Source: Candidatus Omnitrophota bacterium
Lineage (GTDB): Bacteria > Omnitrophota > Gorgyraeia > Duberdicusellales > Duberdicusellaceae
DNA: 64,000 nucleotides
NCBI GenBank assembly: GCA_016932855.1
Contig: JAFGCB010000064.1
Coordinates: 1,767-65,766 of the forward strand
Direction: 5' to 3'
The position numbers were made by a program, and so were the translations under genes. The notes beneath the pieces are model-generated. The model saw only the letters and a program-made list of their open reading frames with translations. It was not told the DNA's origin and did no database searches. This document shows, piece after piece, positions 12,931 through 64,000 of this stretch. How positions within the stretch are numbered: the stretch's first letter is position 1; the number at the start of each line of letters is the position of its first letter.

Positions 12931-14319
12931 ATGAAAGTCTTATTGGTAGTTTACGATAATGCTTCCTATATACATACATTCCCTCAAGGCACAGCCTATA
13001 TAGCGGCGGTATTGCAAAAAGAAGGACACCAGGTCAGTATTTATAATCAGGATGTCTATCATTATCCTGACGAGCATTTAACAGGATATTTGAATGAGAA
13101 TAAGTTCGACCTTGTCGGCCTGGGAATAATAGCCGGTTATTACCAGTATAGAAAACTTTTAGCTATTTCCCGGGCAATAAATAAGTCAAAAAACAGGCCC
13201 CTCTATATTTTAGGAGGCCATGGGCCTTCGCCTGAGCCGGAATATTTTTTGAAAAAAACCAGGGCTGATATCGTGGTTATTGGCGAGGGAGAAGAGACGA
13301 TTGTTGAGCTGCTTAGGGCAAAGGTTAAAGGTTCTTCTTTGAAGCCGGTTAAAGGAATCGCTTTTCGCCAGGGTGAGAAAGTAACGGTAAATGAGCGAAG
13401 GCTTCTCATAGCTGATGTAGATTCCTTGCCTTATCCGGCCTATGATTTGTTTCCTATTGAGTATTACCGGCTGATACGGGAGATGCACTCTACAAACAGT
13501 GACTTTGTGATGCCTGTTTTGTCCGGTCGGGGATGCCCTTTTCATTGTAATTTTTGCTACCGAATGGATGAAGGTTTTAGGCCTCGAAAAATAGAAGCGA
13601 TTATCGATGAGATTGAATTACTAAAAAGGAAGTATCTTATTAATTATATCGGTTTTTCCGATGAGCTTTTGATGTCATCGGTTCAGCGTACCGAAGATAT
13701 CTGCCGGGCATTTATTAAAGCTAAGCTTAATATCAAATGGTATTGTAATGGTCGTCTTAACTATGCTAAACCTGGTCTACTTAAGTTGATGAAGCAGGCA
13801 GGTTGCGCTTTCATTAATTACGGGATTGAGGCCGTGGATGACGAAGTGCTTAAGAATATGAGGAAGGTCTTAACAGTAAGGCAAATAACCGAAGGTATTG
13901 AGAATACTCTTAAGGCAAAGATAAGCCCGGGATTTAACATAATCTTCGGCAATATCGGGGACAACAAGAAAACCCTTAAAAGAGGCGTAGAGTTTTTATT
14001 GAAATACGACGACGCGGCTCAGATGCGGACCATTCGGCCGGTAACGCCTTATCCGGGTTCGCCTCTTTATTATTATGCTATTGAAAAAGGCCTCTTAAGA
14101 GACTGCGAGGATTTTTATGAAAACAAACACTTAAACTCTGACTTATTGGCGGTTAATTTCACCGACTTAAGCGATGAAGAATTTCACTGCTCTCTTATGA
14201 GGGCCAATATGCGTCTTCTTAAAAACTATTTTCGGAAAAAGCTTTTAAGTGTTACTTGGCAGTGTGAAGATCTTTATTTAAACCGTAATATTAATTTTAG
14301 GGGTTTTCGAAAAGTATAG
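12931..14319 (+). CDS. cobalamin(B12)-binding radical SAM enzyme (class B), paralog 1
   Basis: N-terminal B12-binding-like Rossmann region (LLVVYDN…LVGLGIIAG…ILGGHGPS). CxxxCxxC radical SAM cluster motif (RGCPFHCNFC) about 200 aa in. Confidence 0.75.
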   Translation: MKVLLVVYDNASYIHTFPQGTAYIAAVLQKEGHQVSIYNQDVYHYPDEHLTGYLNENKFDLVGLGIIAGYYQYRKLLAISRAINKSKNRPLYILGGHGPSPEPEYFLKKTRADIVVIGEGEETIVELLRAKVKGSSLKPVKGIAFRQGEKVTVNERRLLIADVDSLPYPAYDLFPIEYYRLIREMHSTNSDFVMPVLSGRGCPFHCNFCYRMDEGFRPRKIEAIIDEIELLKRKYLINYIGFSDELLMSSVQRTEDICRAFIKAKLNIKWYCNGRLNYAKPGLLKLMKQAGCAFINYGIEAVDDEVLKNMRKVLTVRQITEGIENTLKAKISPGFNIIFGNIGDNKKTLKRGVEFLLKYDDAAQMRTIRPVTPYPGSPLYYYAIEKGLLRDCEDFYENKHLNSDLLAVNFTDLSDEEFHCSLMRANMRLLKNYFRKKLLSVTWQCEDLYLNRNINFRGFRKV

Positions 14320-14348
14320 TAAAAGATGTGTAAAAAAGGAGAGAGGTT

Positions 14349-15362
14349 ATGATTTTAAAAGACAAGGTTATTTTAGTAACTGGGGGTACTGGTTCATTTG
14401 GAAACAAGTTCGCGGAAATAGTATTAAATAGGCATCGTCCTAAGAAGCTTATTATTTTAAGCCGCGATGAGTATAAGCAGCATCGAATGGCCAAGACTTT
14501 TCCCGAGGAGCGGTATCCTATCCGTTATTTTCTGGGAGATATCCGCGACCGCTACCGGCTTTTTCGGGCTTTTGAAGGAGTCGACTATGTTGTTCATGCC
14601 GCGGCTCTAAAGCAGGTGCCGGCTTTAGAGTACAATCCCACCGAAGCGGTAAAGACAAACGTTATCGGCGCGGACAATATTGTTGACGCGGCGATTGATG
14701 CCGGCGTTAAAAAAGTCATTGTTATTTCTACCGATAAGGCGGTAAACCCGGCTAATCTCTATGGAGCGACCAAGCTGGTTGCTGAGAAAATATTCGTCGC
14801 TGCCAATGCTTATGGCGGAGGTTCGGTAAAGTTTTCGGTGGTGCGCTATGGTAATGTTATCGGCTCACGCGGAAGCGTAATACCTTTATATTTGCGCTTA
14901 AAACGCGAGGGTATAAAATTATTCCCCTTGACCAGCAAAGACATGAGCCGTTTCTGGATTACTTTGGACAAAGGAGTAGAGCTAGTGCTTAAAGCAATAG
15001 AAGAATCCGAAGGGGGTGAGATTTTTGTTCCTATGTTGCCCTCGATGCGGATTGTGGATTTGGCAAAAGCAATAGAGCCTTTATGTACGTTTAAGATAAT
15101 CGGCATACGGCCGGGAGAAAAGATTCATGAGACTTTAATATCAGAGACTGAAGCGCGCAAGGCTAAAATATTCGGCGACGCCTATGTTATTTTGCCGCAA
15201 TTTCTTGACTCTGAGAATGTCCGCACAAAATACGAGCAATATCCCTTTGTTCCCGAAGGGTTCAGTTATGAAAGTGATAAGAACCAGTGGTATCTTGAAG
15301 CCGAAGAATTATCAGAGATGTTCAGTCAGCCTCAGGTAGTCCCAGAAGTGGAGAAAGTCTAA
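14349..15362 (+). CDS. pseB: UDP-N-acetylglucosamine 4,6-dehydratase (inverting)
   Basis: ILVTGGTGSFG, YGATKLVAEK and the MSRFWITL motif characteristic of PseB/FlaA1; ~337 aa. Confidence 0.85.
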   Translation: MILKDKVILVTGGTGSFGNKFAEIVLNRHRPKKLIILSRDEYKQHRMAKTFPEERYPIRYFLGDIRDRYRLFRAFEGVDYVVHAAALKQVPALEYNPTEAVKTNVIGADNIVDAAIDAGVKKVIVISTDKAVNPANLYGATKLVAEKIFVAANAYGGGSVKFSVVRYGNVIGSRGSVIPLYLRLKREGIKLFPLTSKDMSRFWITLDKGVELVLKAIEESEGGEIFVPMLPSMRIVDLAKAIEPLCTFKIIGIRPGEKIHETLISETEARKAKIFGDAYVILPQFLDSENVRTKYEQYPFVPEGFSYESDKNQWYLEAEELSEMFSQPQVVPEVEKV

Positions 15363-16513
15363 TGAGGTATATACCTTACGGCCGACAATCTATAGGGCAG
15401 GATGATTTAAGGGAAGTTACAAAGGTTCTAAAATCCGATTGGATTACCCAGGGCCCGAAGATAAAGGAATTTGAAGAAGGGCTTTGCCGATATACGCAAG
15501 CAAAGTATGCAACAGCTGTATCTAGCGGAACCGCAGCCCTGCATATCGCGGCTTTAGCGGCAGGCATAAAACAAGGCGATGAGGTGATTACTTCGCCGAT
15601 AACTTTTGTCGCTTCGGCAAACGCAGCTTTGTATTGCGGGGCAAGGCCGGTCTTTGCCGATATAGAAAAGGCTACGGGCAATATTGATACTGAAAAGATA
15701 AGCCGCAAGATTACTAAGAAGACAAAGGCTATTATCCCGGTCCATTTCGCCGGCCACCCTTGTGATTTGGAGAAGATTAAGGCCATTGCCAAAAAGAATA
15801 ATCTCATTATCATTGAAGACGCTTGTCACGCCTTAGGGGCTGAATATAAGGGTATAAAAATTGGTTCTTGCCGCCATTCGGATATGGCTGTTTTGAGCTT
15901 TCATCCTGTAAAGGCTATCACGACCGGCGAGGGAGGGGCGGTACTTACCAACAGCAAAGATTATTACAAGAAACTTATTATGTTCAGAAACCACGGTCTT
16001 ACCAAGGAGAACCTTGAGGATACCTCTCAGGGAGATTGGTATTACGAGATGCAGTATTTGGGTTACAATTATCGGATAACCGATATTCAGACTTGCCTGG
16101 GCATATCTCAGTTAAAAAAACTGGATTCTTTCATCCGTAAGAGAAGAAAAATAGCCGCATTCTACGACCGGGCTTTTAAAGGTAATGGATATTTTGATAT
16201 TCCGGCAGAGAAAGAGTACGCTTTTTCGGCCTATCACCTCTATCCTATTATCTTGAAAAAGGTTTACGCCTGTAAACGCAAAGAATTTTTTTCGAAAATG
16301 AGAGCTAGAGGCTTTGGTGTCCAGGTGCATTATATCCCCGTCTACTTACAGCCATATTATAAACGCCTGGGATACGCGGCGGGTCTCTGCCCTCTTGCCG
16401 AGTCTTTTTATAATAGGCAGATAAGTATCCCTCTATATCCGTCTATGAGCGGTAAGGATATTAAATATGTAGTAAACACTCTTTTAGGGTTATGCAAGTC
16501 TGTTTTTAAATAA
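15362..16513 (+). CDS. pseC: UDP-4-amino-4,6-dideoxy-N-acetyl-beta-L-altrosamine transaminase
   Basis: Classic PseC N-terminus (IPYGRQSIGQDDL…VLKSDWITQGPK) and a DegT-fold body; TAATG 1-nt overlap with pseB. Confidence 0.85.
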   Translation: MRYIPYGRQSIGQDDLREVTKVLKSDWITQGPKIKEFEEGLCRYTQAKYATAVSSGTAALHIAALAAGIKQGDEVITSPITFVASANAALYCGARPVFADIEKATGNIDTEKISRKITKKTKAIIPVHFAGHPCDLEKIKAIAKKNNLIIIEDACHALGAEYKGIKIGSCRHSDMAVLSFHPVKAITTGEGGAVLTNSKDYYKKLIMFRNHGLTKENLEDTSQGDWYYEMQYLGYNYRITDIQTCLGISQLKKLDSFIRKRRKIAAFYDRAFKGNGYFDIPAEKEYAFSAYHLYPIILKKVYACKRKEFFSKMRARGFGVQVHYIPVYLQPYYKRLGYAAGLCPLAESFYNRQISIPLYPSMSGKDIKYVVNTLLGLCKSVFK

Positions 16514-16577
16514 AGGAAATTACGCAGACTGCACCGCTTGTAAAACTTAAGGAAATAAAAGCAGCAAGTAGAAGAGT

Positions 16578-17330
16578 ATGAATAAAAATAGCAATAAAAA
16601 AATCGTCTCCACGATAGAGGCTCGCTTTGCTTCAACAAGGCTTGCTGGCAAGACGCTTCTTGAGATTTGCGGTAAGCCTACCCTTGAACTTCTTATTGAA
16701 AGGCTTAGACGAAGCCGGTTTATAGACGAAATCGTAGTTGCGACAACAGTTAGTTCTGATTGCGACAGAATTGAATCTTTAGCCAAAAGGCTTAAAGTCG
16801 GGTGTTTCCGGGGCAGTGAAGAAGATGTTTTAGACCGCGTTCTTAAGGCTGCTAAGGCTTATAAAGCTGATATTATCGTGGAGATTACCGGCGATGAAAC
16901 CCTTATTGACCCGGTTATTGTGGATGAGACGATTGAGTCCTATCTTAAAAATGATTTTGACTATGTAAGTAACGTCTTAGACAGAAGATATCCCCGGGGT
17001 CTGGATACGCAAGTTTTCTCCGTAAGCGTCTTGGATGAAGTTTCCCGCTTGACAAATGCGCCGGCTGACAGAGAAAACGTCTCCCTCTATATTTACGAAC
17101 ATCCCCAGCATTATCGGTTAGGAAGCGTTAGGGCTCCGGAAGAATTAAATCACCCTGATTGGCGATGGACCTTGGATACTAAAGAAGACTTCGCGTTTCT
17201 TAAGACCGTTTACCAAGCTTTGTATCCTAAGAAAAAGGATTTTAGTTCTTACGACGTGCTAGCATTTCTTAAGCAGAAGCCCTGGGTTTTAGAGATTAAT
17301 AGCAAGATACAACAGAAGCCGGTTTATTAG
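16578..17330 (+). CDS. pseF: pseudaminic acid cytidylyltransferase-like (CTP_transf_3 family)
   Basis: STIEARFASTRLAGK N-terminal motif; ~250 aa; sits between pseC and pseG/I. Confidence 0.7.
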   Translation: MNKNSNKKIVSTIEARFASTRLAGKTLLEICGKPTLELLIERLRRSRFIDEIVVATTVSSDCDRIESLAKRLKVGCFRGSEEDVLDRVLKAAKAYKADIIVEITGDETLIDPVIVDETIESYLKNDFDYVSNVLDRRYPRGLDTQVFSVSVLDEVSRLTNAPADRENVSLYIYEHPQHYRLGSVRAPEELNHPDWRWTLDTKEDFAFLKTVYQALYPKKKDFSSYDVLAFLKQKPWVLEINSKIQQKPVY

Positions 17331-17332
17331 AT

Positions 17333-18334
17333 ATGAAGAAATACAAAGCCGCTGTTATTGGGTGCGGAAGAATCGGATTTAGGTTTGATAAAGACCCCCG
17401 GCGTAAATATATCGCTACCCATACCGGGGCGTATCATTCGGTAAAGGAGACTGATCTTGTGGCAGTCTGTGATAGTAATATTCAAAGGCTAAAAGAGTGC
17501 TGCGCTGTATTTAGGGATGCCCGTCCCTACCGCGACATTAATAAGATGTTGCAAAAGGAAAACCTTGATATTGTCAGTATCTGCACCCCGCCTCAGACGC
17601 ACTATACTGTTTTTAAGAGGGTGCTTGAGTTTGACCTTAAGGCTGTTTTTTGCGAGAAGCCTTTGGCTGGCAATATTTCTGAAGCCTTAAAGATGTTTCG
17701 TCTTTCTCGTAAAAAGAAAGTTATTTTACAGGTAGACCACCAGAGACGCTTTGATCCCCTTCATGCGCGGATACGTTCCTTTATTAAAACGCGCAGATTA
17801 GGGGGAGTCCAGCAGGTAAACGCCTATTACACGGCGGGTATATATAATACAGGTTCGCACCTCTTTGATTTACTTAGGTTTTTATTTGGCGATGTTTCCT
17901 GGGTTGAAGGGTTTCCAAGCAGAAATTCTTCCCATAAGAGGAAAGATCCTAATATAGACGGCATAATAAGATTTAAGAATGGTATTTTTGCGACCTTTCA
18001 GGCCTGTGACGCCCGGCGTTATCTTGTCTTTGAGGTCAACTGTTTCCTGGAGAACGGGCGAGTAGTTCTTAAGAATAGCGGATTTGAACTTGACACTTAT
18101 ATAGCGGGTAAAAGTAAATATTTCTCCGGATATAAAGAGCTGATTAAAACCAAGCCTTTTTGCAGGACAGACTATCGACGGGCCTTTATGGTGGGTGCGG
18201 TAAAGCATATTGTGGAATGCTTAAAAAAGAATAAGAAATCCGTCTCTTCAGGCCAAGACGGTTACCGGGCATTGCAAATCATTGAGGCTGCGGTATATTC
18301 AGCCAGACATAACGGTAGAAGAATAGGCCTATAG
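17333..18334 (+). CDS. Gfo/Idh/MocA-family NAD(P)-dependent oxidoreductase
   Basis: AAVIGCGRIG Rossmann start; ICTPPQTH and EKPLA motifs typical of the family; ~333 aa. Confidence 0.7.
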   Translation: MKKYKAAVIGCGRIGFRFDKDPRRKYIATHTGAYHSVKETDLVAVCDSNIQRLKECCAVFRDARPYRDINKMLQKENLDIVSICTPPQTHYTVFKRVLEFDLKAVFCEKPLAGNISEALKMFRLSRKKKVILQVDHQRRFDPLHARIRSFIKTRRLGGVQQVNAYYTAGIYNTGSHLFDLLRFLFGDVSWVEGFPSRNSSHKRKDPNIDGIIRFKNGIFATFQACDARRYLVFEVNCFLENGRVVLKNSGFELDTYIAGKSKYFSGYKELIKTKPFCRTDYRRAFMVGAVKHIVECLKKNKKSVSSGQDGYRALQIIEAAVYSARHNGRRIGL

Positions 18335-18350
18335 GCTTAAGGAGGATTAC

Positions 18351-19619
18351 ATGAGTAAGCTTGCCTTATTGGGCGGAGAGAAGATACGAAAAACCCCCTT
18401 TGTAAGTAATGCCTGTATAAAAGATGAGGAAAAAAAGAGAGTAAGCGCTGTTCTTGATAGCGGTATGCTTTCGGGGTTTGTTGCCAAGAAGGGAGATTTT
18501 TTTCTGGGCGGTGCGCAGTTAAGGGAATTCGAAGCGTTAGTGCAAGGCTATTTTAGTATCGAATATGCAATAGCTGTTAACTCGGCAACCGCCGGCCTTC
18601 ATATAGCAGTAGCTGCCTGCGGCATCGGCGCAGGTGATGAGGTTATAGTTACGCCTTACACAATGAGCGCCTCAGCTACGGCTATAGTTATGCAGAAAGC
18701 TATACCCGTTTTTTCCGATATAACCGAAAATAGACTCTGTCTTGACCCGGCCCGGATAGAGAAAAAGATAACTTCCCGCACCAAGGCTATCATGGTTGTG
18801 CATCTTTTCGGCTGGCCGGCAGAGATGCACGAAATTCTTAATATAGCCCGGAAGCATAATTTATTTGTTATTGAAGATTGTGCCCAGGCTCCCGGCGCCA
18901 AGTATAAGGACAAGTTCGTAGGCACTCTAGGCCATATCGGGGTCTTTAGCCTTAATCAGCATAAGACTATCACTTGCGGAGAAGGAGGATTCGCTATTAC
19001 TAAGAATAGCGATCTTGCTTTGCGGATGCAGCTTGTTCGTAATCACGGCGAGGCTGTTGTAGAAGATTTTGGCAGTGAAGAAAATTACGATATAGTCGGC
19101 TATAATTACCGGATGACTGAATTAGAGGCTGCTGTAAGCATAGGCCAATTCAGGCGTCTTGACTATTTAAACAGCCATAGGATTGAGTTAGCCGAGTATT
19201 TGATTGAGAAACTGTCAAAGTTTAAGGGCATAATACTTCCCCGGAAAGATGACAACACGAATGTTTATTTTGTTTTGCCGATGCGGTTAAAAAGAGAATT
19301 GGTTGGTGTACATAGGGATACCTTTGTAAAGGCTTTGATTGCCGAAGGTATACCTTTTGCAGCCGGTTATGTAAAACCCATTTATCTTGCTCCTTTGTAC
19401 CAGAAGACGCTTAAGGATAAAAGTGTTTATGATAAAGGTATTTGTCCTGTATGTGAACGGATGTATGAGGAGGAATTAATGCTGACCGGTGTATGTAAAT
19501 ATCCCCATACAAAAGAGGATATGGATTGTGTCGTTGAGGCATTTGATAAGATATACAACCATGCTGAAGAGCTTAAAAGATTTGAAGATGAGAGCTGTTG
19601 TTCTTACCGAAGGCGGTAA
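18351..19619 (+). CDS. DegT/DnrJ/EryC1/StrS-family PLP sugar aminotransferase
   Basis: NSATAGLHIAV…GDEVIVTPYT… and a conserved Lys region (SLNQHKTITCGEGG); ~420 aa. Confidence 0.75.
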   Translation: MSKLALLGGEKIRKTPFVSNACIKDEEKKRVSAVLDSGMLSGFVAKKGDFFLGGAQLREFEALVQGYFSIEYAIAVNSATAGLHIAVAACGIGAGDEVIVTPYTMSASATAIVMQKAIPVFSDITENRLCLDPARIEKKITSRTKAIMVVHLFGWPAEMHEILNIARKHNLFVIEDCAQAPGAKYKDKFVGTLGHIGVFSLNQHKTITCGEGGFAITKNSDLALRMQLVRNHGEAVVEDFGSEENYDIVGYNYRMTELEAAVSIGQFRRLDYLNSHRIELAEYLIEKLSKFKGIILPRKDDNTNVYFVLPMRLKRELVGVHRDTFVKALIAEGIPFAAGYVKPIYLAPLYQKTLKDKSVYDKGICPVCERMYEEELMLTGVCKYPHTKEDMDCVVEAFDKIYNHAEELKRFEDESCCSYRRR

Positions 19620-21036: not shown

Positions 21037-21051
21037 TAAACATAAAAGTAT

Positions 21052-48526: not shown

Positions 48527-48530
48527 TAGT

Positions 48531-50081: not shown

Positions 50082-50381
50082 AGGTTAGCGGCCGTTATTT
50101 AAGAAGAGTAAATTTCCGTAGATTTTTCAATAAAATCAAGATAAAATACGACAATATCGGTAATGCCAAAGCTTGCATGAAAGGATGAGAGATAAATCAT
50201 TGATTTTAAAGGACTATTTTTCATGCAAGGGGGGAGGAAATTCAACCCCCAAAATTGCAATTCAAAATTTAAAATTTTGGATTTTAACTTGAACTTTTTA
50301 CTTTTGCCTTTTGAATTTTGACTTACTTAAGTATAGGGTTAAGACTTTGACAATACGATAATAGCTAAAGGGGCCGATTTC

Positions 50382-52155: not shown

Positions 52156-52156
52156 C

Positions 52157-52194
52157 AAATCCCAAATCCCAACGGGTTTTGGATTTGGGATTTG
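52157..52194 (+). terminator. stem-loop (14-bp perfect stem) immediately 3' of the E1-alpha gene; possible intrinsic terminator/attenuator or RNA-processing site
   Basis: caaatcccaaatcc (52157-52170) pairs perfectly with ggatttgggatttg (52181-52194); the loop is caacgggtttt. There is no clear U-tract, so function is uncertain. Confidence 0.35.
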
Positions 52195-52209
52195 ATAAAT
52201 AGAGTAAAT

Positions 52210-53211: not shown

Positions 53212-53238
53212 ATATAAAAAAAATGCCAAATTTATTTA

Positions 53239-53294
53239 CCCCTACAAGAATCGGCGAAATATAAAATATGTAGGGGCCGGGCTTGCCCCGGCCC
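53239..53294 (+). terminator. nested inverted repeats / GC-rich hairpin downstream of the E1-beta gene
   Basis: cccctaca (53239-53246) pairs with tgtagggg (53269-53276). It overlaps a GC hairpin: gggccggg (53274-53281), loop cttgc, cccggccc (53287-53294), followed by an A/T-rich tract. Confidence 0.35.
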
Positions 53295-53317
53295 ATTAAA
53301 ACAATAATATTAAATAC

Positions 53318-56381: not shown

Positions 56382-57349
56382 TGATTATAACTCGTACTCC
56401 TTTTAGAGTAAGTTTTATGGGCGGCGGGAGCGATTTCAGGGATTTCTATAATAAGAACGGATATGGAGCCGTGGTCAGCGCCGCAATTGACAGATATATG
56501 TACATAGTCATCCATCCTTACTTTCATGATAAGATACGCATAAAATATTCTAAGACAGAAGATGTAGAGCGCCTTGCCGATATTAATCATCCTTTGGTAA
56601 GAGAATGCTTGAAAAAGGTTGAAGTTGAGAAAGGGATTGAGATCGCCAGTTTCGCCGATGTGCCGGCAGGGACTGGTCTAGGTTCTTCCAGCGCCTTTAC
56701 CGTAGGGCTATTGCACGCTTTGTATGTCTATAAAGGTAAGAGCGTATCGAAAGAGAAGCTCGCTCAAGAGGCCTGTGAGATAGAAATAGATATACTGGGC
56801 GAGCCTATAGGCAAGCAGGATCAATACGCCTCTGCTTACGGCAATATTAATTATTTTAAGTTCAAAAAAGATGAGACAGTAGAAGTTTGTCCTATTCCAG
56901 TAAAGCAGGAAGTAGAAGATAAGCTTAAGCGGGATTTCTGCCTTTATTATACAGGCCGGATGAGACAGGCCAGGGATATTCTTATTGAGCAGAAAAACAA
57001 TATTGCTGATAGGGATAAATTTGTGGTTTTAAGAAAGATGCTTGGCTTAACGCAAGAGCTTAAGGAAATTTTCCAGAAAGAAGAGATTGACCGCATAGGT
57101 TCTTTTTTACACAGAGGATGGCTTTACAAGAAAGAGCTAGCCGAAGGCATTTCTAATTCGGGGGTTGATGAATTTTACAATAAATCCTTGCAGTACGGCG
57201 CTGTAGGCGGAAAGCTCCTGGGTGCCGGAGGAGGAGGCTTTTTACTCTTATATTCTTTAGACCATGCAAGCTTAAAGAAAAAATTAGGCTGCAAGACTTT
57301 GCCTTTTAATATAGATAAAGAAGGAACAAAAATATTATTTAATGGATAA
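56381..57349 (+). CDS. hddA: GHMP-family sugar kinase (D-glycero-D-manno-heptose-7-phosphate kinase-like)
   Basis: TPFRVSFMGGGSDF…, PAGTGLGSSSAF and GAGGGGFLLL motifs; ~322 aa. Confidence 0.65.
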   Translation: MIITRTPFRVSFMGGGSDFRDFYNKNGYGAVVSAAIDRYMYIVIHPYFHDKIRIKYSKTEDVERLADINHPLVRECLKKVEVEKGIEIASFADVPAGTGLGSSSAFTVGLLHALYVYKGKSVSKEKLAQEACEIEIDILGEPIGKQDQYASAYGNINYFKFKKDETVEVCPIPVKQEVEDKLKRDFCLYYTGRMRQARDILIEQKNNIADRDKFVVLRKMLGLTQELKEIFQKEEIDRIGSFLHRGWLYKKELAEGISNSGVDEFYNKSLQYGAVGGKLLGAGGGGFLLLYSLDHASLKKKLGCKTLPFNIDKEGTKILFNG

Positions 57350-57361
57350 AGGAGGTTTTCG

Positions 57362-57928
57362 TTGATGCCGGCAGAATTCTTGAAAAAATATTTCGCGGAC
57401 ATGCAAAGAATTTTCCAGGCTTTCAGTGTTGAGGAATTTGCTAAGTTTATCTCGGAATTGAAAGATGCCTACGAGAAGGGTTTGTCTATTTTCGTCTTCG
57501 GTAACGGTGGCAGCGGCTTAAACGCTTCTCATTTTGCTTCGGACTTAAACAAAGAAGCCAGCCTCGGCAAACCTAAGCGGTTTAAGGTGACCTGTCTTAA
57601 CGACAGCCCCGCGCTTATTTCTTCTTACGCTAATGATATCTCCTATGCCGATATATTCTCAGAGCAGCTAAAGAATTTTATGAAGGAAAAAGACCTTGTC
57701 ATCGGGATTTCCGGCAGCGGCAATTCCGAAAATGTCATAAGAGCGATAGACTACGCCAACGAAGAAGGCGCAAGGACTCTGGGTATATGCGGCTTTAAAG
57801 GAGGCAGGTTGAAGAAAGTCGCCCTAAACTGTCTAGTCATTGACAGCGATGATATGCAGAAGGTTGAAGATGCGCATCTTATAATTCTTCATTGCGCTGT
57901 GCAGTGGTTGAAACTTAACTTACCTTAA
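57362..57928 (+). CDS. gmhA: SIS-domain sedoheptulose-7-phosphate isomerase
   Basis: ~188 aa single SIS domain with …VFGNGGSG…ASHFASDL… and …GISGSGNS… motifs. Confidence 0.7.
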   Translation: MMPAEFLKKYFADMQRIFQAFSVEEFAKFISELKDAYEKGLSIFVFGNGGSGLNASHFASDLNKEASLGKPKRFKVTCLNDSPALISSYANDISYADIFSEQLKNFMKEKDLVIGISGSGNSENVIRAIDYANEEGARTLGICGFKGGRLKKVALNCLVIDSDDMQKVEDAHLIILHCAVQWLKLNLP

Positions 57929-57966
57929 AGAGGAAGATAAGGCTTCGCGATAATTGAAACTATTCC

Positions 57967-58611
57967 ATGGTTTTCTTAAAATCAACGCGTCTAAAGAATA
58001 TTATTTGTATTTTTAGCGGTATAGCTATCTTTATTTTAGTCGTTATTCTATTTACGCCTTTGGCTGAGCAGTTATGTAAGGCGCTTATTATTGATGAAGC
58101 GCCTGTGTCTAGTGAAGGAATTGTTATTTTATCGGGAGGGGTTTATAAGTGTGGTCTTCCTGATTTTGGCACCTTGGTAAGGTTGAGGAAAGGGTTAGAA
58201 TTGTATCGGGAAGAATACGCAGATAAGATTATTTGTCTCGGAGGAAATATGGTAGAAAAGACCCAGAAAACCTTCGCCCAACATATGAAAGATACCCTTA
58301 TACTTAACGGTGTTGCTGCCGACGATATTTTAATTCAGGATGAGACGGTTAATACCTATCGGGATGTGGCGCATTTGGTCAAAAAGTTTAACGGTATTTT
58401 TGATTTTAATCAGGTACTTTTTGTGACCTCAGCTTACCATACTTACCGCCTAAAAAAAATTTTGCAGAAAATGGGGATCAACGCCCGGGTGATTTCGGCT
58501 GAACCATACGAATTAACGCCTAGGTTCTGGCCGGAGAGATTACTTTTTTTCTATTACATCATAAGGGAATACGGCGCAATCTGCTATTTTAAGCTAAAGG
58601 GTTATATCTAA
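57967..58611 (+). CDS. DUF218/YdcF-ElyC-SanA-family protein with N-terminal membrane anchor
   Basis: N-terminal TM helix. …GIVILSGG… and …VTSAYHTYR… motifs are typical of the DUF218 family. Confidence 0.5.
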   Translation: MVFLKSTRLKNIICIFSGIAIFILVVILFTPLAEQLCKALIIDEAPVSSEGIVILSGGVYKCGLPDFGTLVRLRKGLELYREEYADKIICLGGNMVEKTQKTFAQHMKDTLILNGVAADDILIQDETVNTYRDVAHLVKKFNGIFDFNQVLFVTSAYHTYRLKKILQKMGINARVISAEPYELTPRFWPERLLFFYYIIREYGAICYFKLKGYI

Positions 58612-58660: not shown

Positions 58661-60046
58661 ATGAGGCAAGAAGATAAGAGAAAAGACCCTTGCTTAGTTT
58701 TCGTAAATCCGCCTTCCTTTAGACAGACAGAGGTTCACGACAGCCCTCCTTACCCCAATATTAGCATTGCCTATATTGCTGCAGTAGCCAGAGAAGCAGG
58801 ATATCCTAATTGTTTCAATATTGACGCTAAATTGGAGCGTTTGACGCTAAGGGAGGTTGTCCAGCGTATTCTTGAATATTCGCCCGCTTTAGTCGGCTTT
58901 ACCGGCCTTACTAACGATATAGAGCAGGTTCGCCGTATCGCCGAAGCCCTAAAAGGATACAGCAAGGATATCATAACCGTCGTCGGCGGGGTTCATGTTT
59001 CAGCTTTGCCGCGGCAGACCCTATATGAAATTCCTGCGGTTGATTTTGTGGTCATAAATGAAGGAGAGCTGACGTTTCCAAGGTTACTTAGGGCTTTTTT
59101 TGACAAGTCCGAAAAAATCTCGGAGGTTCCCAATCTTTGCTATCGGAAAAACGGGGGAATAGTCGTTACCAAGAAGGAGGATTGGATAGAAGATTTGGAT
59201 AAGCTTCCTTTTCCCGCCTGGGATTTATTTCCGCCGGTGCAATTTTATCCGTTCATGGCAAGCCGGGGTTGTCCTTTTGGCTGCCGTTTTTGTAACCCTA
59301 TGGGCAAAAAGGTTCGCGAACGTTCCCTGGAAAACATGCTTAGAGAGGTTCAACAGCTTATTGAGAAGTATAACCCCAAGATTATTTCTTTTTTCGATGA
59401 GACATTCGGCTTAGATAAAGAAAAGACCGCTGCTCTTATGGATGCTTTCATTAAGATTGATTTGGCCAAGAAGTTAAAGTGGTACGCTGCTTTGCGCGTA
59501 AGCACAACCACTGTTGAGGTTATGTCTCATATGTATGAGGCTGGCTGTCGCTTGGTTGGATTCGGTATTGAATCTGGGTCACAACGAATATTGGGTGAAA
59601 AAATGGTTGATATCAATTATGCCCGGACATTGGTAAGGCACGGGATAAATCTCGGCATGGAGGTTAACAATTTTTTTATTTTAGGCCATCCCGATGAGAC
59701 TGCCTGGGAGATGCTGAAGACTATAAGACTTGCTGCAAAGCTTAATCCCACCCGTCCCATATTTGGGATTATGGTTCCTTATCCCGGCACAGAAATTTAT
59801 GATTTAGCCAAAGAAGGTAAGTCCGGCTATAAACTTATTGCCCGGTCGTGGAATGATTACAATAAGCATATCGGAAACGCCCTTAGGTTCACTAAAGTCG
59901 GAAATCTAACAGTCGAGTTTTTACGGATATCAGCATATTTATATTTTTTTATCTATAATCTGCGGTTTCGGGATTTATTGATTTTCATTAAAGATTACTG
60001 CCGCACGGCATTCGGGGTCTTGAAGAACATCCACCGAAGGATTTAG
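58661..60046 (+). CDS. cobalamin(B12)-binding radical SAM enzyme, paralog 4
   Basis: B12-binding-like N-terminus; CxxxCxxC (RGCPFGCRFC); ~461 aa. Confidence 0.75.
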   Translation: MRQEDKRKDPCLVFVNPPSFRQTEVHDSPPYPNISIAYIAAVAREAGYPNCFNIDAKLERLTLREVVQRILEYSPALVGFTGLTNDIEQVRRIAEALKGYSKDIITVVGGVHVSALPRQTLYEIPAVDFVVINEGELTFPRLLRAFFDKSEKISEVPNLCYRKNGGIVVTKKEDWIEDLDKLPFPAWDLFPPVQFYPFMASRGCPFGCRFCNPMGKKVRERSLENMLREVQQLIEKYNPKIISFFDETFGLDKEKTAALMDAFIKIDLAKKLKWYAALRVSTTTVEVMSHMYEAGCRLVGFGIESGSQRILGEKMVDINYARTLVRHGINLGMEVNNFFILGHPDETAWEMLKTIRLAAKLNPTRPIFGIMVPYPGTEIYDLAKEGKSGYKLIARSWNDYNKHIGNALRFTKVGNLTVEFLRISAYLYFFIYNLRFRDLLIFIKDYCRTAFGVLKNIHRRI

Positions 60047-60109: not shown

Positions 60110-61201
60110 ATGAAAAGATCTGACAGCCGGATTGCCGATCGCCTTAAATATACTTTAGTTACTTTATGTAACCGAATAAGGTATGGTTCTACTTGGAAGA
60201 AGCCGTTTTATATGCTGCGGCTACTAAAAAATTTATTCCTTCGGATTTGCTTTAATAAAAGGCCTTTACGGGGGATTGATTTTGCAGTTGATTTCGCCTG
60301 CGACTTAAAATGCGCGCACTGTTTTAACCGCGATATACTTACGCCTGGCAACAGCCGGAAGATGGGCATAGATGATTACGCCCGTGTTTTTAAGGAGGCT
60401 GAGAAAGAGGGGATCCTGAATTTTTGTTTTCAGGGCGGCGAATTTTTAATCCTTAAAAACTGGCAGGATATTTTGAGGTTGCTGGATTCACGAAAGTTTT
60501 CTATTTCAGTAACTACGAACGGAACTCACCTGGACGAGGAGGTTGCGAAAAAATTAAAAGAACTTGGGGTTAATACCGTCACCGTCAGTATTGACAGCGG
60601 GATAGCCGCCGAGCACGATGAATTTAGAGGTCAAGAGGGAAGTCATGCTAAGGCCCTAAAGGCGATAGAGAATTCCCTGAAGCAGGGATTTAAGGTCGTA
60701 CTTAATGCGACCATAACTCCTGCGAGTATGCGCTCGGAGGGTTTTTTAAAACTTTTAGAATATGCGGCTCAAAAGAAGACTTTATTAAATACTATTTTTG
60801 CAGCTCCTTCCGGCAATTGGAGCGGCAAAGAAGAGATTATTATGCGCGATGAGGATATTTCAGAATATAAAGCTATTTGTAAGAGATATCCTAACGTAGT
60901 TCGTGATATGGATTCGTTATATTTAGGCAGGGGTTGTCCGGCTGCCAATGAGTCAATTTATATTACTCCTTATGGTGATGTGTTTGCCTGTGCCTATATA
61001 CATATTACTTTAGGTAATATCTTTACCGAACCTTTGCATCAGATTAGAAAAAGGGGCAGAAAATATTTTAAATATCAGAGTAAATGTCCCATCTCCGAGA
61101 ATAGAGATTTTATTGAGCAGTATAATCGCCTGGTAAAAGGGGCTAAGGCTCTGCCTTTGCCTTACGAGGCCCATAACGAGATTACAGCCTGGGATTCTTA
61201 A
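60110..61201 (+). CDS. radical SAM enzyme with C-terminal SPASM/twitch-like Cys-rich domain
   Basis: CxxxCxxC near the N-terminus (CDLKCAHC) and C-terminal cysteines (…GRGCPAANES…FACAY…) compatible with an auxiliary Fe-S (SPASM/twitch) domain; ~363 aa. Confidence 0.6.
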   Translation: MKRSDSRIADRLKYTLVTLCNRIRYGSTWKKPFYMLRLLKNLFLRICFNKRPLRGIDFAVDFACDLKCAHCFNRDILTPGNSRKMGIDDYARVFKEAEKEGILNFCFQGGEFLILKNWQDILRLLDSRKFSISVTTNGTHLDEEVAKKLKELGVNTVTVSIDSGIAAEHDEFRGQEGSHAKALKAIENSLKQGFKVVLNATITPASMRSEGFLKLLEYAAQKKTLLNTIFAAPSGNWSGKEEIIMRDEDISEYKAICKRYPNVVRDMDSLYLGRGCPAANESIYITPYGDVFACAYIHITLGNIFTEPLHQIRKRGRKYFKYQSKCPISENRDFIEQYNRLVKGAKALPLPYEAHNEITAWDS

Positions 61202-61226: not shown

Positions 61227-62759
61227 TTGGCCTTAGCGCCGGGATTTAAAATTATGATTAATAGCCTTTTGGATGGAGTTAAGCCTCAGGATATTCGAGT
61301 AGCATTCGTTCATGATTTAACCTTTAATGAGCCGATAGGAATAGGATATTTGGCCGCTTATATAAAGAAACATTTTCCTTTGGTTAAAGTTGCCTTGTTT
61401 GATCCTAAGGTTGATCCTATATCTTCCATAGCCGACTTTCAGCCTACGTTAGTTCTTTATAGTATTATGACTGGTCAGCAGAAGCAGTATATTGAGCGGA
61501 ACATAAGGATAAAGAAGTTGCTTAAACCTTTCATATCTGTTTTTGGAGGGGCTCATCCGACATATTTTCCGGAGATGGTCACAGAAGAAGGCGTTGATAT
61601 TATTTGCCGGGGTGAAGGGGAGAAACCTTTAGGAAATTTGATACAGGCAATGGTATCGCATTCAGACATACGTTTTATAAAGGGACTTTGGGTCAAATAC
61701 GACGATAAGATCCACAGAAACGAGGTTGATTTGCTTATCGATGATTTAAGCGCTTTGCCTTTTCCGGACAGGGATATATATTACGGTAAGTCATCTTTTC
61801 TAAGAACCTACGGCAGAAAACCCGTGGTGGGCGCCCGGGGATGCCCCTTTAAATGTTCGTATTGTTATAACAGCGGGTTAAACGCCTTGTTTGCGGGCAA
61901 GGGAAAGGTTTTTCGTTCCAGGAGCCCTCAGTCCGTGGTTAGTGAAGTTAAGGCTATTAAGTCTAAGTTTAATCTTCGTTTTATCGCTTTTATAGAAGAC
62001 GTATTTTCCGGGATAGACATCGAGTGGCTGAAGGCATTCCAGGCAGAATATTCGAAACTGGATATCCCTTTTTTTGTAAGCTTAAGGGCGGAATTTGTCA
62101 ATTCCAGGCTAGCTAAGTATCTGCGTAAAAGCGGCTGCGTCTCAGCTTCCATGGCGATTGAGCACGGTGAATATGAATATCGCAAAAAGTATCTTTTTCG
62201 TAATATGTCCAACGATATGCTTATCGAAGGCACGCGGATACTTGAGTCCGAAGGCATACGCGTTGCTTCGCCGGTTATGCTGGGCCTTCCCTTTTCCGAC
62301 TTAAACAGCGATATTGAAACGCTTAGGCTGGTATCTAAGACTAGGCCGACGCACGCGACGACAGCGGTGTTTCAGCCTTATCCCGGCACGGCTCTTACCA
62401 ATATGTGCCTTGAGAAAAAACTTCTTGAGGCCGTTGACGTTGATAATCTTCAAGACGATTTTTATTCTCCGGCGCCCCTTAAGGGCGTTGATTATAAGAA
62501 AGTCTTGAAGCTTCATAACAGTTTCAGCGTGATATTGTTAATCAATAGATGGTTTAAAACGGACGTAGGCAAGTGTTTTAAGAGGCTGCCGGATTTATCC
62601 ATTATAGGGCTGGTAAATGTCTTCTTAAAATATTTATCCTTTCGAAAGATAATTAGTTATCGGCGTTCCTTAATAGAAATAATCCGAGAGATATATAATG
62701 CCTTAAGCAGCGGGGTCTTCGGCGTAGGCGCAAAAAGAAAAAGAGAGCCTAGCTGGTAA
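61227..62759 (+). CDS. cobalamin(B12)-binding radical SAM enzyme, paralog 5
   Basis: B12-binding-like N-terminus; CxxxCxxC (RGCPFKCSYC); ~510 aa. Confidence 0.75.
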   Translation: MALAPGFKIMINSLLDGVKPQDIRVAFVHDLTFNEPIGIGYLAAYIKKHFPLVKVALFDPKVDPISSIADFQPTLVLYSIMTGQQKQYIERNIRIKKLLKPFISVFGGAHPTYFPEMVTEEGVDIICRGEGEKPLGNLIQAMVSHSDIRFIKGLWVKYDDKIHRNEVDLLIDDLSALPFPDRDIYYGKSSFLRTYGRKPVVGARGCPFKCSYCYNSGLNALFAGKGKVFRSRSPQSVVSEVKAIKSKFNLRFIAFIEDVFSGIDIEWLKAFQAEYSKLDIPFFVSLRAEFVNSRLAKYLRKSGCVSASMAIEHGEYEYRKKYLFRNMSNDMLIEGTRILESEGIRVASPVMLGLPFSDLNSDIETLRLVSKTRPTHATTAVFQPYPGTALTNMCLEKKLLEAVDVDNLQDDFYSPAPLKGVDYKKVLKLHNSFSVILLINRWFKTDVGKCFKRLPDLSIIGLVNVFLKYLSFRKIISYRRSLIEIIREIYNALSSGVFGVGAKRKREPSW

Positions 62760-62822
62760 CTGGTTCTTAAGAGTTTCCGCAAGGCCATAGGCTTTTTTAA
62801 AGGCATTAATACAGATCGCTTT

Positions 62823-64000
62823 ATGAACGATACCAGGCGTACTAAAATTCTTCTTGTGGCTCTTAATCCCGGTTCGCTGTATATTTACGGCGTAAGAAGC
62901 CTTAGCGCTGTTTTAAACTCCCAGGGCTTTGATACAAGGATACTCTTTTTCTTTCCTAACCAATTCGCTTGGGACAACGATAAGGCTATAAGTAATTTTA
63001 TTCAATTCTGCGTAAATTTCGACCTTATCGGTTTTTCCTTTACTTCTTATAACTTTTTTCTCGCGGTAAAACTCGCTGAGGCCATTAAACGAAACAGCCC
63101 GGATAAGATTATCCTTTTCGGCGGCGCTGACCCGACTGCCGAACCCCAGCGCAGTTTAAAGGTAGCTGATGCTGTTTGCGTCGGAGAAGGCGAAGTAGCC
63201 TTGCCGGCATTTGTTAAGGCCCTGGAAGAAGGCAAGGCCAAGCCTTCTGTCCCGGGCTTATGGCTTAAGGATCAAAAAGAAAATTTGAACCAGCCGCTGC
63301 AGCCTTTAGTCAGGGATTTTAGCCGGATACCTACCGTGGATAATAATTTCCAGCGGCATTTTGTTTTGCATAGAGGAAATATACTTAACATAGAAGGCCG
63401 TATCGCCAAGCTCTATCTTATGAGCAATTACATGACAATGACTTCATTCGGCTGTTCGCTTATGTGCACTTATTGTTTGAATAACAGGATGAAGGTTCTT
63501 TATCCTGATTGGGCGGTTGTCCGGCGCAGGCCGGTTAAATATATTATCGAAGAATTTAAGGACGCAACTAAACAGATTCCCTGGATTCGTTCTATCGATT
63601 TGGTTGACGATGATTTTGGTAACGCCCCTATTGAGTATCTGCGTGAATTTCAGCGGGAATACCGGAGAAATATCGGTCTGCCCTTGGATGTCATGGGTCT
63701 GCGCCCGCCGGATATCATCCCTGAAAAACTGGATGTTTTACGGGAGGCCGGCACTGTCAAAGTCCGGATGGGGATACAGACAGTTAATCAAGAGACAAAG
63801 AGTATTTTTAAGCGGGGCTATTCCAATGATTTTCTTATGGAGAAAATCAAACTTCTCAATCAATACAAAGAAGCCTTCTACGGCATTCGTTACGATTTTA
63901 TTATTGATACTCCCTGGGATATCCAGGGAGCTTCTCTTGAGACGCTGGAATTTATTTCCCGCATACCGTCTCCTTTCATTGTGAATATTTTTACCTTGGC
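62823..64000 (+). CDS. cobalamin(B12)-binding radical SAM enzyme, paralog 6 (3'-truncated by window edge)
   Basis: Read directly from the sequence: ATG at 62823 opens a frame that stays open to the window end. N-terminus MNDTRRTKILLVALNPGS… (B12-binding-like) and CxxxCxxC (FGCSLMCTYC). It is not in the supplied ORF track, presumably because it has no stop. The tracked 63517-63984 ORF lies in another frame and is likely spurious. Confidence 0.7.
   Translation, partial: MNDTRRTKILLVALNPGSLYIYGVRSLSAVLNSQGFDTRILFFFPNQFAWDNDKAISNFIQFCVNFDLIGFSFTSYNFFLAVKLAEAIKRNSPDKIILFGGADPTAEPQRSLKVADAVCVGEGEVALPAFVKALEEGKAKPSVPGLWLKDQKENLNQPLQPLVRDFSRIPTVDNNFQRHFVLHRGNILNIEGRIAKLYLMSNYMTMTSFGCSLMCTYCLNNRMKVLYPDWAVVRRRPVKYIIEEFKDATKQIPWIRSIDLVDDDFGNAPIEYLREFQREYRRNIGLPLDVMGLRPPDIIPEKLDVLREAGTVKVRMGIQTVNQETKSIFKRGYSNDFLMEKIKLLNQYKEAFYGIRYDFIIDTPWDIQGASLETLEFISRIPSPFIVNIFTL

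Follow-up and report, generated by a model that had tools for sequence, protein, structure and literature searches.

We analysed a 64,000-nucleotide (nt) stretch of contig JAFGCB010000064.1 from a Candidatus Omnitrophota bacterium, called the window throughout, which carries seven genes for radical S-adenosylmethionine (SAM) enzymes amid genes for the synthesis, assembly and export of sugars. The window is a single glycan locus read from one strand: all 58 of its genes lie on the plus strand, the coding density is ~97.5% and the GC content stays at 37-45% throughout. A first-pass annotation, made from the sequence alone, had pointed to six open reading frames (ORFs) that combine a B12-binding domain with a CxxxCxxC radical SAM core, and to a seventh radical SAM ORF with a SPASM/twitch-like tail. 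All seven were found where it had placed them, on the plus strand, and are referred to here as R1 to R6 and S7. Scores are given in bits; the Pfam cut-offs are 32.1 for PF02310 (B12-binding), 29.5 for PF04055 (Radical_SAM) and 21.5 for PF13186 (SPASM).

12931..14319, plus strand: R1, B12-binding-domain radical SAM enzyme, 462 amino acids (aa), MBN2121139.1; PF02310 59, PF04055 72, motif CPFHCNFC
43555..44937, plus strand: R2, B12-binding-domain radical SAM enzyme, 460 aa, MBN2121166.1; PF02310, PF04055, motif CxxxCxxC
45018..46439, plus strand: R3, B12-binding-domain radical SAM enzyme, 473 aa; PF02310 57, PF04055 83, motif CPCACRYC
58661..60046, plus strand: R4, B12-binding-domain radical SAM enzyme, 461 aa; PF02310 81, PF04055 60
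60110..61201, plus strand: S7, radical SAM enzyme, C-terminal domain twitch-like (partial SPASM), 363 aa, MBN2121180.1; PF04055 88, PF13186 27.0
61227..62759, plus strand: R5, B12-binding-domain radical SAM enzyme, 510 aa from a TTG start; PF02310, PF04055
62823..64000, plus strand: R6, B12-binding-domain radical SAM enzyme, truncated where the window stops (full end at the equivalent of position 64361); PF02310, PF04055

The gaps adjoining every radical SAM gene are shorter than 115 base pairs (bp). Since the seven genes lie among only 58 co-directional, densely packed ones, and since the clustering recurs in unrelated genomes, chance is very unlikely to be its source. R1, R2 and S7 are identical to the NCBI (National Center for Biotechnology Information) proteins listed above, which come from a 66,303-bp contig of a Candidatus Omnitrophica metagenome-assembled genome (MAG). 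In addition, a Logan contig (L021, run SRR13394437) is 100% identical to window positions 51034-64000 over 12,967 bp and extends 498 bp further; it carries the exact R4 protein, supplies the complete R6 (512 aa, with the same two domains), and has a gene call for R5 that begins 27 nt later (501 aa). The R3 ORF likewise begins with TTG, with an ATG 9 nt downstream.

Domains and relationships of the six B12-type enzymes

All six B12-type enzymes passed the Pfam thresholds for both domains, with 52-81 bits for PF02310 and 52-83 bits for PF04055, and each has a single CxxxCxxC motif at residues ~196-218, whose three cysteines are invariant in an alignment of R1-R6. An AlphaFold model of R2 (pLDDT 92.1) matched TsrM, AprD4, MgmA (9CCB), OxsB, CysS and TokK over its full length, and the cobalamin-bound structures of TsrM, OxsB, TokK, CysS and MgmA superpose on the whole model. 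The architecture described by the first-pass annotation was thus upheld by Pfam thresholds, motif and the fold of R2, and its concern that the B12-binding fold might be lacking on profile search did not materialise.

The same annotation had called the six enzymes paralogous. This holds in the superfamily sense, but not in that of a recent paralogue family: their pairwise identity is 23-31%, and R1, R2, R5, R6 and S7 have closer orthologues in other genomes, on which grounds we rejected a recent paralogue expansion. Judged by these identities, R1-R6 represent old, distinct lineages.

None of the seven enzymes attained the cut-off of any curated NCBIfam family, so function cannot be transferred to them by family membership. 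R1-R6 fell below the cut-offs of BchE, HpnJ, HpnR, PhpK, MgmA, BzaD, TsrM, the ladderane-type enzyme, KedN5, ApyD and AprD4; the other outcome that would have refuted the first-pass annotation, a place among cofactor-maturation enzymes unrelated to sugars, was not observed at these cut-offs. Over the whole protein, their best scores were 75-169 bits against cut-offs of 251-775 bits. The top match was HpnJ for R2, R4 and R6, and BchE for R1, R3 and R5; the best partial matches were to BchE, HpnJ, the ladderane-type lipid enzyme, PhpK and ApyD (cut-offs 360-750 bits).

The extent of these alignments bears on the N-terminal domain. The PhpK, BzaD, MgmA and also BchE models align from residue ~15-20 of R1-R5, whereas the AprD4 model aligns to the radical SAM core only, from residue ~127-200. 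A Protein Data Bank (PDB) search with a profile of the six enzymes gave the same picture: OxsB (profile positions 26-373), CysS (25-378) and TokK cover both domains, whereas AprD4 covers positions 166-400. Because models of cobalamin enzymes span the N-terminus and AprD4 covers the core only, these alignments favour, short of proof, a genuine B12 domain in R1-R6. An Rfam scan of the window returned zero matches, cobalamin riboswitches included.

S7, R5 and R6 form a conserved cassette

The seventh enzyme does carry the tail that had been described for it, in partial form: its SPASM match covers positions 1-44 of the 67-position profile. When S7 was aligned with 23 relatives, some of them as low as 31% in identity, no cysteines other than C64/C68/C71 and C276/C294/C326 proved invariant, and the seven-cysteine, two-cluster SPASM motif is absent. 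Because only three C-terminal cysteines are invariant and the PF13186 match is partial, S7 is classed as twitch-like, with one three-cysteine auxiliary site rather than a full SPASM domain. Its AlphaFold model (pLDDT 93.0) matched SkfB, MoaA, SuiB, BlsE, anSME, viperins and DesII about equally well, at 14-21% identity. S7 has orthologues of 52-69% identity in other MAGs, and its relatives aligned at 52% identity or above are 325-349 aa long. R5, in turn, belongs to a rare lineage, with only two 50%-cluster representatives of at least 44% identity among 2,005 related at E <=1e-30.

R4, S7, R5 and R6 follow one another with gaps of 26-64 bp, R4 lying between a DUF218 gene and S7. Directly upstream of the four is a set of sugar genes:

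55698..58611, plus strand: heptose-like module (nucleotidyltransferase, GHMP kinase, SIS isomerase) and DUF218 gene, assigned by Pfam

We call this module heptose-like because its enzymes are distantly related to HddC (100 bits, cut-off 300), HddA (151, cut-off 600) and GmhA (97, cut-off 209), with scores below the cut-offs, and no HAD (GmhB-type) phosphatase was found in it among the Pfam assignments; as judged from these scores, it does not qualify as a GDP-D-glycero-alpha-D-manno-heptose pathway.

The order of these genes is shared with other genomes. In the locus L029 (GCA_024449935.1), a nucleotidyltransferase, a GHMP kinase and an SIS gene are followed by DUF218 (55% identity), S7 (68%), R5 (64%) and R6 (59%), and then, in this order, by a pair of B12-radical SAM genes, one gene for a plain radical SAM enzyme, one more of the B12 type and a glycosyltransferase family 2 (GT2) gene. 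In L030 (GCA_002753615.1, a Nitrospirae/Magnetococcales MAG), S7 (66%), R5 (57%) and R6 (54%) stand in the same order. The two loci have three more orthologous radical SAM genes in common (70%, 55% and 62% identity), and no positional orthologue of R4 was found in either. On this comparison, S7-R5-R6 is a conserved multi-radical-SAM cassette, accompanied by R4 here. A core of six radical SAM genes (S7, R5, R6, two B12-type and one plain) spans positions 9968-20024 of L029 and 7347-15712 of L030, which come from unrelated MAGs, at 51-70% identity; as the contig of the window ends just past R6, the remaining core members may lie beyond that end and be lacking here through assembly alone.

More distant versions exist as well. 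In an Elusimicrobia locus (L031), a 46% S7 relative and four B12-radical SAM genes are interleaved with sugar genes (epimerase, nucleotidyltransferases, GT2 genes, GHMP kinase, SIS and a PMT/ArnT-like GT-C gene). A metagenome scan with S7 returned three loci, among them a 5-kb contig (L026) on which a 41% S7 relative stands between a pair of B12-radical SAM genes and a third one.

R1 travels with glycan genes

R1 is flanked by a NeuB1 module on one side and by PseB on the other, its immediate neighbours being a pair of short-chain dehydrogenase/reductase (SDR) genes and PseB. The 120 best-matching database clusters share 69-74% identity with R1 and are nearly all exactly 462 aa long; they come from Omnitrophota, Nitrospirota/Thermodesulfovibrionales, Dehalococcoidales and Actinobacteria. 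In each of the three readable contexts, the orthologue lay in a glycan locus. In L034, it stands directly 3' of the CTP_transf_3 gene that ends a legionaminic-type set (dehydratase, DegT, hexapeptide acetyltransferase, NeuB, NeuC-type epimerase, formyltransferase, PIG-L, CBS-nucleotidyltransferase, CTP_transf_3) and is followed by a ~690-aa protein, then by Wzx, a methyltransferase and one more B12-radical SAM gene. In L032, it lies amid GT2 genes, three more B12-radical SAM genes, a SPASM enzyme, DegT and a ~690-aa protein, and in L033 it is adjoined by a HAD hydrolase, epimerase genes and a DegT aminotransferase. By its sequence conservation and these contexts, R1 belongs to an orthogroup that is very large, is tightly conserved and keeps company with glycan genes.

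The ~690-aa protein, which has no Pfam match on record, directly follows the R1 orthologue in both L032 (11448-13490) and L034 (11476-13530), the two copies being 36% identical. It may work alongside R1 as a partner, or transfer the product that R1 makes; no homologue of it was found in the window.

R2, R3 and a recurring E1/transketolase set

R2 lies directly 3' of a Wzy-like gene, and R3 is followed by a GT2 gene. Orthologues of R2 at 54-74% identity were found on short metagenome contigs only; in a scan of Genome Taxonomy Database (GTDB) species representatives with R2, the closest relative had 33% identity. On one of the short contigs (L025), a 65% R2 orthologue is preceded by genes for a TylF methyltransferase and a split transketolase and by a DegT with 47% identity to the window DegT at 53318. 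The latter belongs to the following set:

51142..54433, plus strand: thiamine-pyrophosphate (TPP)-dependent, pyruvate-dehydrogenase (PDH)-type E1 alpha and E1 beta, with a DegT-type aminotransferase, assigned by Pfam and NCBIfam

Similar sets accompany B12-radical SAM genes elsewhere. In a Pirellulales locus (L001), one R2-like gene comes after Gmd-like, E1 alpha, E1 beta and transketolase-like genes and before Fcl-like genes, two TylF genes and a GHMP kinase. On plasmid pDMC1 of Solidesulfovibrio magneticus RS-1, two GT2 genes, a B12-radical SAM gene and a NUDIX gene precede a GHMP kinase (40% identity), E1 alpha (38%) and E1 beta (50%), the set continuing with Fcl-like, DegT, SDR epimerase (55%), nucleotidyltransferase, GT-C and SIS genes. 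Plasmid p5 of Azospirillum argentinense Az39 carries a kinase (41%), an oxidoreductase (61% to the window SDR at 1651), then two B12-radical SAM genes with a split transketolase between them, and a methyltransferase; here, as in L025, the split transketolase replaces the E1 pair. Plasmid pDCAR1 of S. carbinolicus DSM 3852 holds epimerase, acyltransferase, glycosyltransferase, B12-radical SAM and sialate O-acetylesterase genes and a DUF4910 protein 35% identical to that of the window, along with three further genes annotated as radical SAM, two of which align with R4 and R1 while the third is cut at the end of the stretch that was read.

The combination of E1 alpha/beta or a split transketolase with a B12-radical SAM gene therefore recurs in the window (51142-54433), in L037 (NC_012797.1, 22514-39663), in L036, in L001 and in L025, that is, in distant phyla and on plasmids of cultured bacteria. 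Its usual company is some of DegT, GHMP kinase, nucleotidyltransferase and an SDR (55-61% identical to that at 1651-2586 of the window). These sets have the look of a single nucleotide-sugar pathway, as yet uncharacterised. In deoxysugar clusters, PDH-type E1 pairs add two-carbon branches to keto-sugars, and because of this activity, a branched or extended amino sugar would, by analogy, be made here and then further modified by a B12-radical SAM enzyme.

The association with glycan genes recurs across phyla

Beyond these examples, sugar genes stood beside the homologue in 14 of 20 species-representative loci recovered with R2, and included Gmd, Fcl-like, PseB-like, GT2, Wzx, TylF and WbuX-like genes. 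These loci come from Planctomycetota, Desulfobacterota, Chloroflexota, Omnitrophota, Bacteroidota and one archaeon. Another locus from Omnitrophota places a SPASM enzyme and two B12-radical SAM genes amid GT2, Wzy, Wzx, NeuB, CMP-transferase and carbamoyltransferase genes. An Elusimicrobia locus (L023, ERZ27254812, positions 3800-11380), also found with R2, places a B12-radical SAM gene that is 34% identical to both R2 and R4 amid phosphonate-type genes in a GT4/Wzy/Bac_transf locus; its neighbours are a cytidylyltransferase-phosphoenolpyruvate (PEP) mutase fusion, a TPP decarboxylase, an iron-containing alcohol dehydrogenase, a glycerophosphotransferase-like protein and a sulfatase-like protein. 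This set suggests a hydroxypropylphosphonate-type decoration of the glycan.

The association of B12-radical SAM genes with glycan genes is, then, not confined to the window; it is widespread, cultured bacteria included. Literature searches found no description of radical SAM/B12 enzymes in O-antigen, nonulosonic-acid, polysaccharide or lipopolysaccharide pathways, in agreement with the first-pass annotation, which knew of no characterised nonulosonic-acid or O-antigen pathway with such an enzyme; nor did they find a conserved multi-radical-SAM cassette described. The only precedent, a marginal one, is in Campylobacter fetus, in which CFT03427_1545 and _1558 are uncharacterised phase-variable SPASM-type genes listed with methyltransferase, SDR and formyltransferase genes (PMC6321876), a case of radical SAM genes in the glycosylation-like locus of a pathogen. 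The association is real, recurrent and uncharacterised. The class itself is known, as are its sugar-acting members in antibiotic and hopanoid pathways; no account of its systematic presence in surface-glycan loci of the Wzx/Wzy, nonulosonic-acid and heptose-like types turned up in these searches.

Sugar pathways, assembly and export genes of the window

The remaining genes of the window fall largely into the following groups:

1651..12909, plus strand: second nonulosonic-acid-type module, upstream of R1 (SDR epimerase/dehydratase, DegT, NeuB-type synthase, methyltransferase, CBS-GHMP kinase, nucleotidyltransferase, CMP-transferase, class IV aminotransferase, two xylose-isomerase-like TIM proteins, two SDRs), assigned by Pfam
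14349..22080, plus strand: pseudaminic-acid pathway (PseB, PseC, cytidylyltransferase, GFO oxidoreductase, DegT, PseG-GNAT fusion, PseI), assigned by NCBIfam and Pfam
36386..50996, plus strand: assembly and export genes around R2 and R3 (545-aa protein, Wzx, methyltransferase, polysialyltransferase-like, Wzy-like, GT2 fusion, second Wzx, Bac_transf), assigned by Pfam

Four enzymes of the pseudaminic-acid pathway passed their NCBIfam equivalog cut-offs: PseB (458 bits, cut-off 408), PseC (525, cut-off 424), PseG (172, cut-off 154) and PseI (467, cut-off 340). PseH would be the GNAT domain fused to PseG and PseF the CTP_transf_3 protein, both assigned at the Pfam level only; with these, the pathway is complete as predicted from the genes. 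The GTG-started ORF of the PseG-GNAT fusion overlaps the preceding DegT by 131 nt (19489-19619), and its true start is probably further downstream, because the PseG model aligns only from residue 35. In the module upstream of R1, NeuB1 (3714-4796) scored 421.5 bits with NeuB_NnaB (cut-off 399.65). These equivalogs, together with the Wzx, Wzy-like, GT2 and Bac_transf genes, confirm the glycan and nonulosonic-acid setting proposed by the first-pass annotation.

Among the assembly genes, the 545-aa ORF just upstream of Wzx (36386-38023) had zero Pfam or NCBIfam matches. The ORF at 40235-41380 has a weak alpha-2,8-polysialyltransferase match (PF07388, 29.5 bits, cut-off 23.3), in which no stretch is significant alone; it is a candidate nonulosonic-acid transferase. 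The ORF at 46553-48526 consists of a GT2 domain, a hydrophobic stretch resembling membrane segments and a C-terminal region of ~300 aa with no Pfam match, which contains the motif TSDHGESFG, similar to that of the alkaline-phosphatase/sulfatase superfamily; a sulfatase-family protein is also present in L023. The largest intergenic gap of the window, and its only sizeable one (300 bp, 50081-50382), lies just 5' of the Bac_transf gene and may contain an internal promoter, in which case the locus would be transcribed as two units.

Two PP-loop proteins (22886-24100 and 33846-34943) matched WbuX-type N-acetyl-sugar amidotransferases at 352 and 356 bits (cut-off 203), and these family matches point to acetamidino groups. 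Around them lie an amidase (34977-36341), an amidohydrolase, a GNAT protein and a DUF4910/DUF2172 aminopeptidase-like protein. The stretch 28465-32578 encodes an aminoglycoside-N-acetyltransferase-like/FkbH fusion of 836 aa together with a MaoC dehydratase and an SDR whose C-terminal extension of ~125 aa has no Pfam match; this FkbH-MaoC-SDR set suggests that an amino sugar receives its N-acyl group from a donor of the glyceryl or hydroxyacyl type. By Pfam, the window further holds Gmd, Fcl-like, formyltransferase, TylF-like methyltransferase and C-methyltransferase-type genes, and counts five DegT and two CMP-transferase genes.

Proposed function of the radical SAM enzymes

We propose, with a probability of about 60%, that R1-R6 and S7 are glycan-tailoring radical SAM enzymes; should they be so, most of them would probably be C-methyltransferases. 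The first-pass annotation had taken six such enzymes to imply iterative or multiple C-alkylations, which goes beyond what was found: the enzymes are deeply divergent and lie in separate units with separate partners. The seven genes form at least three units (R1; S7-R5-R6 with R4; R2 and R3) and would not carry out one iterated reaction.

Class B enzymes by default use SAM to form a 5'-deoxyadenosyl radical that abstracts hydrogen, transfer the methyl group of methylcobalamin, and re-methylate cob(I)alamin with a second SAM. From the architecture, motifs, fold and conserved neighbourhoods observed above, we infer the use of cobalamin, the transfer of methyl groups and the nature of the substrates, including whether these are nucleotide- or lipid-linked sugars. 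In each B12-type enzyme, the [4Fe-4S] cluster would cleave SAM reductively, and the resulting 5'-deoxyadenosyl radical would take a hydrogen from an unactivated sp3 carbon of a nucleotide-activated or polyprenyl-phosphate-linked sugar, or of its N-acyl group. Methylcobalamin would then donate a methyl group to the substrate radical, and the cob(I)alamin formed would be re-methylated by a second SAM. The enzymes are cytoplasmic; their substrates would be nucleotide sugars, or else polyprenyl-phosphate sugars made by an adjacent GT2 enzyme and later used by a GT-C enzyme, a route analogous to the Arn pathway and to MoeK5. S7 may act on that sugar too, oxidising, epimerising, dehydrating or decarboxylating it by radical chemistry.

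GenK, GenD1, Fms7 and MoeK5, which resemble R1-R6 in architecture, act on sugars. All four are among the Csp3-methyltransferases of a 2026 review of the class (83,589 sequences in >100 groups, the largest of them unexplored), according to which every group with a characterised member includes C-methyltransferases. That class B enzymes typically methylate, as the first-pass annotation stated, is thus right insofar as methylation is the commonest activity in that review; it does not decide the matter here, as methylases are inseparable from their relatives by sequence or structure. Methylation stays our best guess and is unproven for these enzymes, because sequence cannot separate methylases from rearranging or B12-free relatives.

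Several observations weigh against glycan tailoring by methylation. To our knowledge, no glycan structure is known for any Omnitrophota, and neither R1-R6 nor S7 attained a curated cut-off. In L030, the S7-R5-R6 core has no sugar genes within 10 kb and adjoins an LPG_synthase_TM protein. AprD4 was the top PDB match of the six-enzyme profile (127 bits) and ranked third by fold against the R2 model (TM-score 0.73), the fold search not separating cobalamin binders from AprD4. According to the 2026 review, moreover, no feature of sequence or structure separates methylases from BchE, HpnJ, ThnL and OxsB, and AprD4 and ArsL have this architecture and bind no cobalamin.

Alternative explanations

The main rival is sugar chemistry of another kind, in which some or all of the six enzymes act on sugars by radical rearrangement, ring contraction or carbocycle formation, as HpnJ and OxsB do, or by cobalamin-independent dehydration of 1,2-diols, as AprD4 does. 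The prominence of HpnJ and BchE among the NCBIfam matches and of AprD4 among the sequence and fold matches speaks for it, as does the frequent adjacency of B12-radical SAM and GT2 genes (R3 in the window and five other loci, L029 among them), which is reminiscent of hpnJ, a gene adjoining the GT2 gene hpnI. Set against this, HpnJ scores were 75-169 bits where the cut-off is 577.6 and AprD4 scores 34-81 where it is 500, the similarity to AprD4 stops at the core, the N-terminal domains scoring above the Pfam threshold for B12-binding, and methylation is the commonest activity characterised in the class; we therefore regard non-methylating or cobalamin-free chemistry as unlikely, even if it is the strongest competitor. 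Lipid chemistry is less probable still. Here, the S7-R5-R6 cassette and the radical SAM genes that follow it elsewhere would modify a membrane lipid or a glycolipid head group, as do the Hbs/Hgm/Grs clusters, in which Hbs, a SPASM/twitch enzyme, clusters with B12-binding Hgm and Grs in archaea and some bacteria. Hbs homologues occur in 12 Omnitrophota genomes, L030 sets seven radical SAM genes beside LPG_synthase_TM with zero sugar genes within 10 kb, and R1 has a partial match to the ladderane-type "lipid biosynthesis B12-binding/radical SAM" model (133 bits, cut-off 360). In the window, L029 and L031, by contrast, nucleotide-sugar and glycosyltransferase genes adjoin the cassette or alternate with its genes, and S7 differs from Hbs on every point by which Hbs is recognised: Hbs proteins have at least 400 aa, an N-terminal extension of ~100 aa (COG4001), 7-8 conserved C-terminal cysteines and close similarity to AhbD, whereas S7 has 363 aa, three invariant C-terminal cysteines and an AhbD match of 90 bits (cut-off 500) over residues 58-229, the core, only. 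On length, cysteine count and the missing N-terminal domain, we rejected S7 as an Hbs; the accession numbers of the window were not found in the supplements of the Hbs preprint. A structure of tetraether synthase is in the PDB. It was not among the sequence or fold matches listed.

Maturation of a ribosomally synthesised and post-translationally modified peptide (RiPP) by the SPASM-type enzyme and its B12-type neighbours, standing beside a glycan locus by coincidence, is the least credible of these explanations. The nearest solved relatives of S7 do include the peptide maturases SkfB, SuiB and anSME, B12-radical SAM C-methyltransferases are known from RiPP pathways, and TIGR03975 and ApyD gave partial matches. 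However, a RiPP role is very improbable because the gaps of 26-64 bp around R4-S7-R5-R6 leave no room for a precursor gene; in addition, no adjacent genes for a RiPP recognition element, protease or transporter were found, the cassette has these sugar genes beside it in other genomes as well, and S7 has one three-cysteine auxiliary site, not the full SPASM motif. We rejected this explanation on the lack of precursor space and partner genes. A phosphonate pathway of the Fom3 type was also rejected for the window, where Pfam found no PEP mutase; for the Elusimicrobia relative in L023, it is plausible.

Wider implications

We tentatively entertain a larger possibility, though we doubt it more than we believe it: an undescribed, horizontally spread pathway that supplies C-methylated, carbon-extended or rearranged higher sugars for the surface glycans of anaerobes, with the B12-type and twitch-type radical SAM enzymes at its catalytic centre. 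R1 would then act on a CMP-nonulosonic acid or its precursor, and S7-R5-R6 on the product of the heptose-like module. Such a pathway could account for the "higher-carbon ulosonic acids" known solely from mass spectrometry of environmental and cultured microbes (PMC8157484).

Surface glycans, nonulosonic acids among them, determine recognition by phages and by the immune system, and their diversity as known so far arises by polar chemistry (acyl, amidino, O-methyl and N-methyl groups). Should carbon-carbon bonds or rearrangements also be written into them by radical SAM enzymes, a whole layer of glycan structure has been missed by standard pathway prediction, and several large B12-radical SAM groups would gain a biological role. 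The question is open to experiment because related cassettes are carried on plasmids of the cultured S. magneticus RS-1, S. carbinolicus DSM 3852 and A. argentinense Az39.

Comparison with known systems

By architecture, R1-R6 are comparable to GenK, GenD1/GntE, Fms7 and MoeK5, which share the N-terminal B12-binding Rossmann domain and the CxxxCxxC core. GenK, GenD1/GntE and Fms7 belong to aminoglycoside pathways, and MoeK5 to that of moenomycin, with a lipid-linked sugar as its substrate. These are actinomycete antibiotics, whereas the locus of R1-R6 is of the Wzx/Wzy surface-glycan type and includes nonulosonic-acid and heptose-like pathways. HpnJ (hopanoid cyclitol ether) and OxsB (oxetanocin) are B12-domain enzymes that rearrange sugar rings. 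OxsB was among the best matches by sequence (six-enzyme profile) and by fold (R2 model); HpnJ, for all its place as best family match of R2, R4 and R6, stays far below its equivalog cut-off, and the window has no hopanoid genes. AprD4, a radical SAM 1,2-diol dehydratase, performs the 3'-deoxygenation of apramycin on an aminoglycoside sugar. R1-R6 resemble it in the core only, far from its family cut-off, and differ in their N-termini, which pass PF02310.

The cassette around S7 recalls Hbs/Hgm/Grs in combining a SPASM/twitch enzyme with several B12-binding radical SAM enzymes. S7 itself lacks the length, the COG4001 extension and the 7-8-cysteine SPASM domain of Hbs, and the cassette is flanked by sugar genes. 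Nucleotide- and sugar-acting enzymes (BlsE, MoaA, viperin-like enzymes and DesII) are among the fold matches of S7, where peptide maturases score equally and BtrN is absent from the matches listed. The three-cysteine auxiliary site of S7 recalls MoaA, in which an open iron site binds the substrate.

Fosfomycin synthesis, finally, uses Fom3, a B12-radical SAM enzyme that methylates cytidylyl-2-hydroxyethylphosphonate, together with Fom1, Fom2 and FomC. The Elusimicrobia locus L023 resembles this set, placed inside a glycan cluster. It has a PEP mutase, whereas the window has none, so phosphonate chemistry does not explain R1-R6; the locus nonetheless illustrates one concrete way in which such enzymes can serve the decoration of a glycan.

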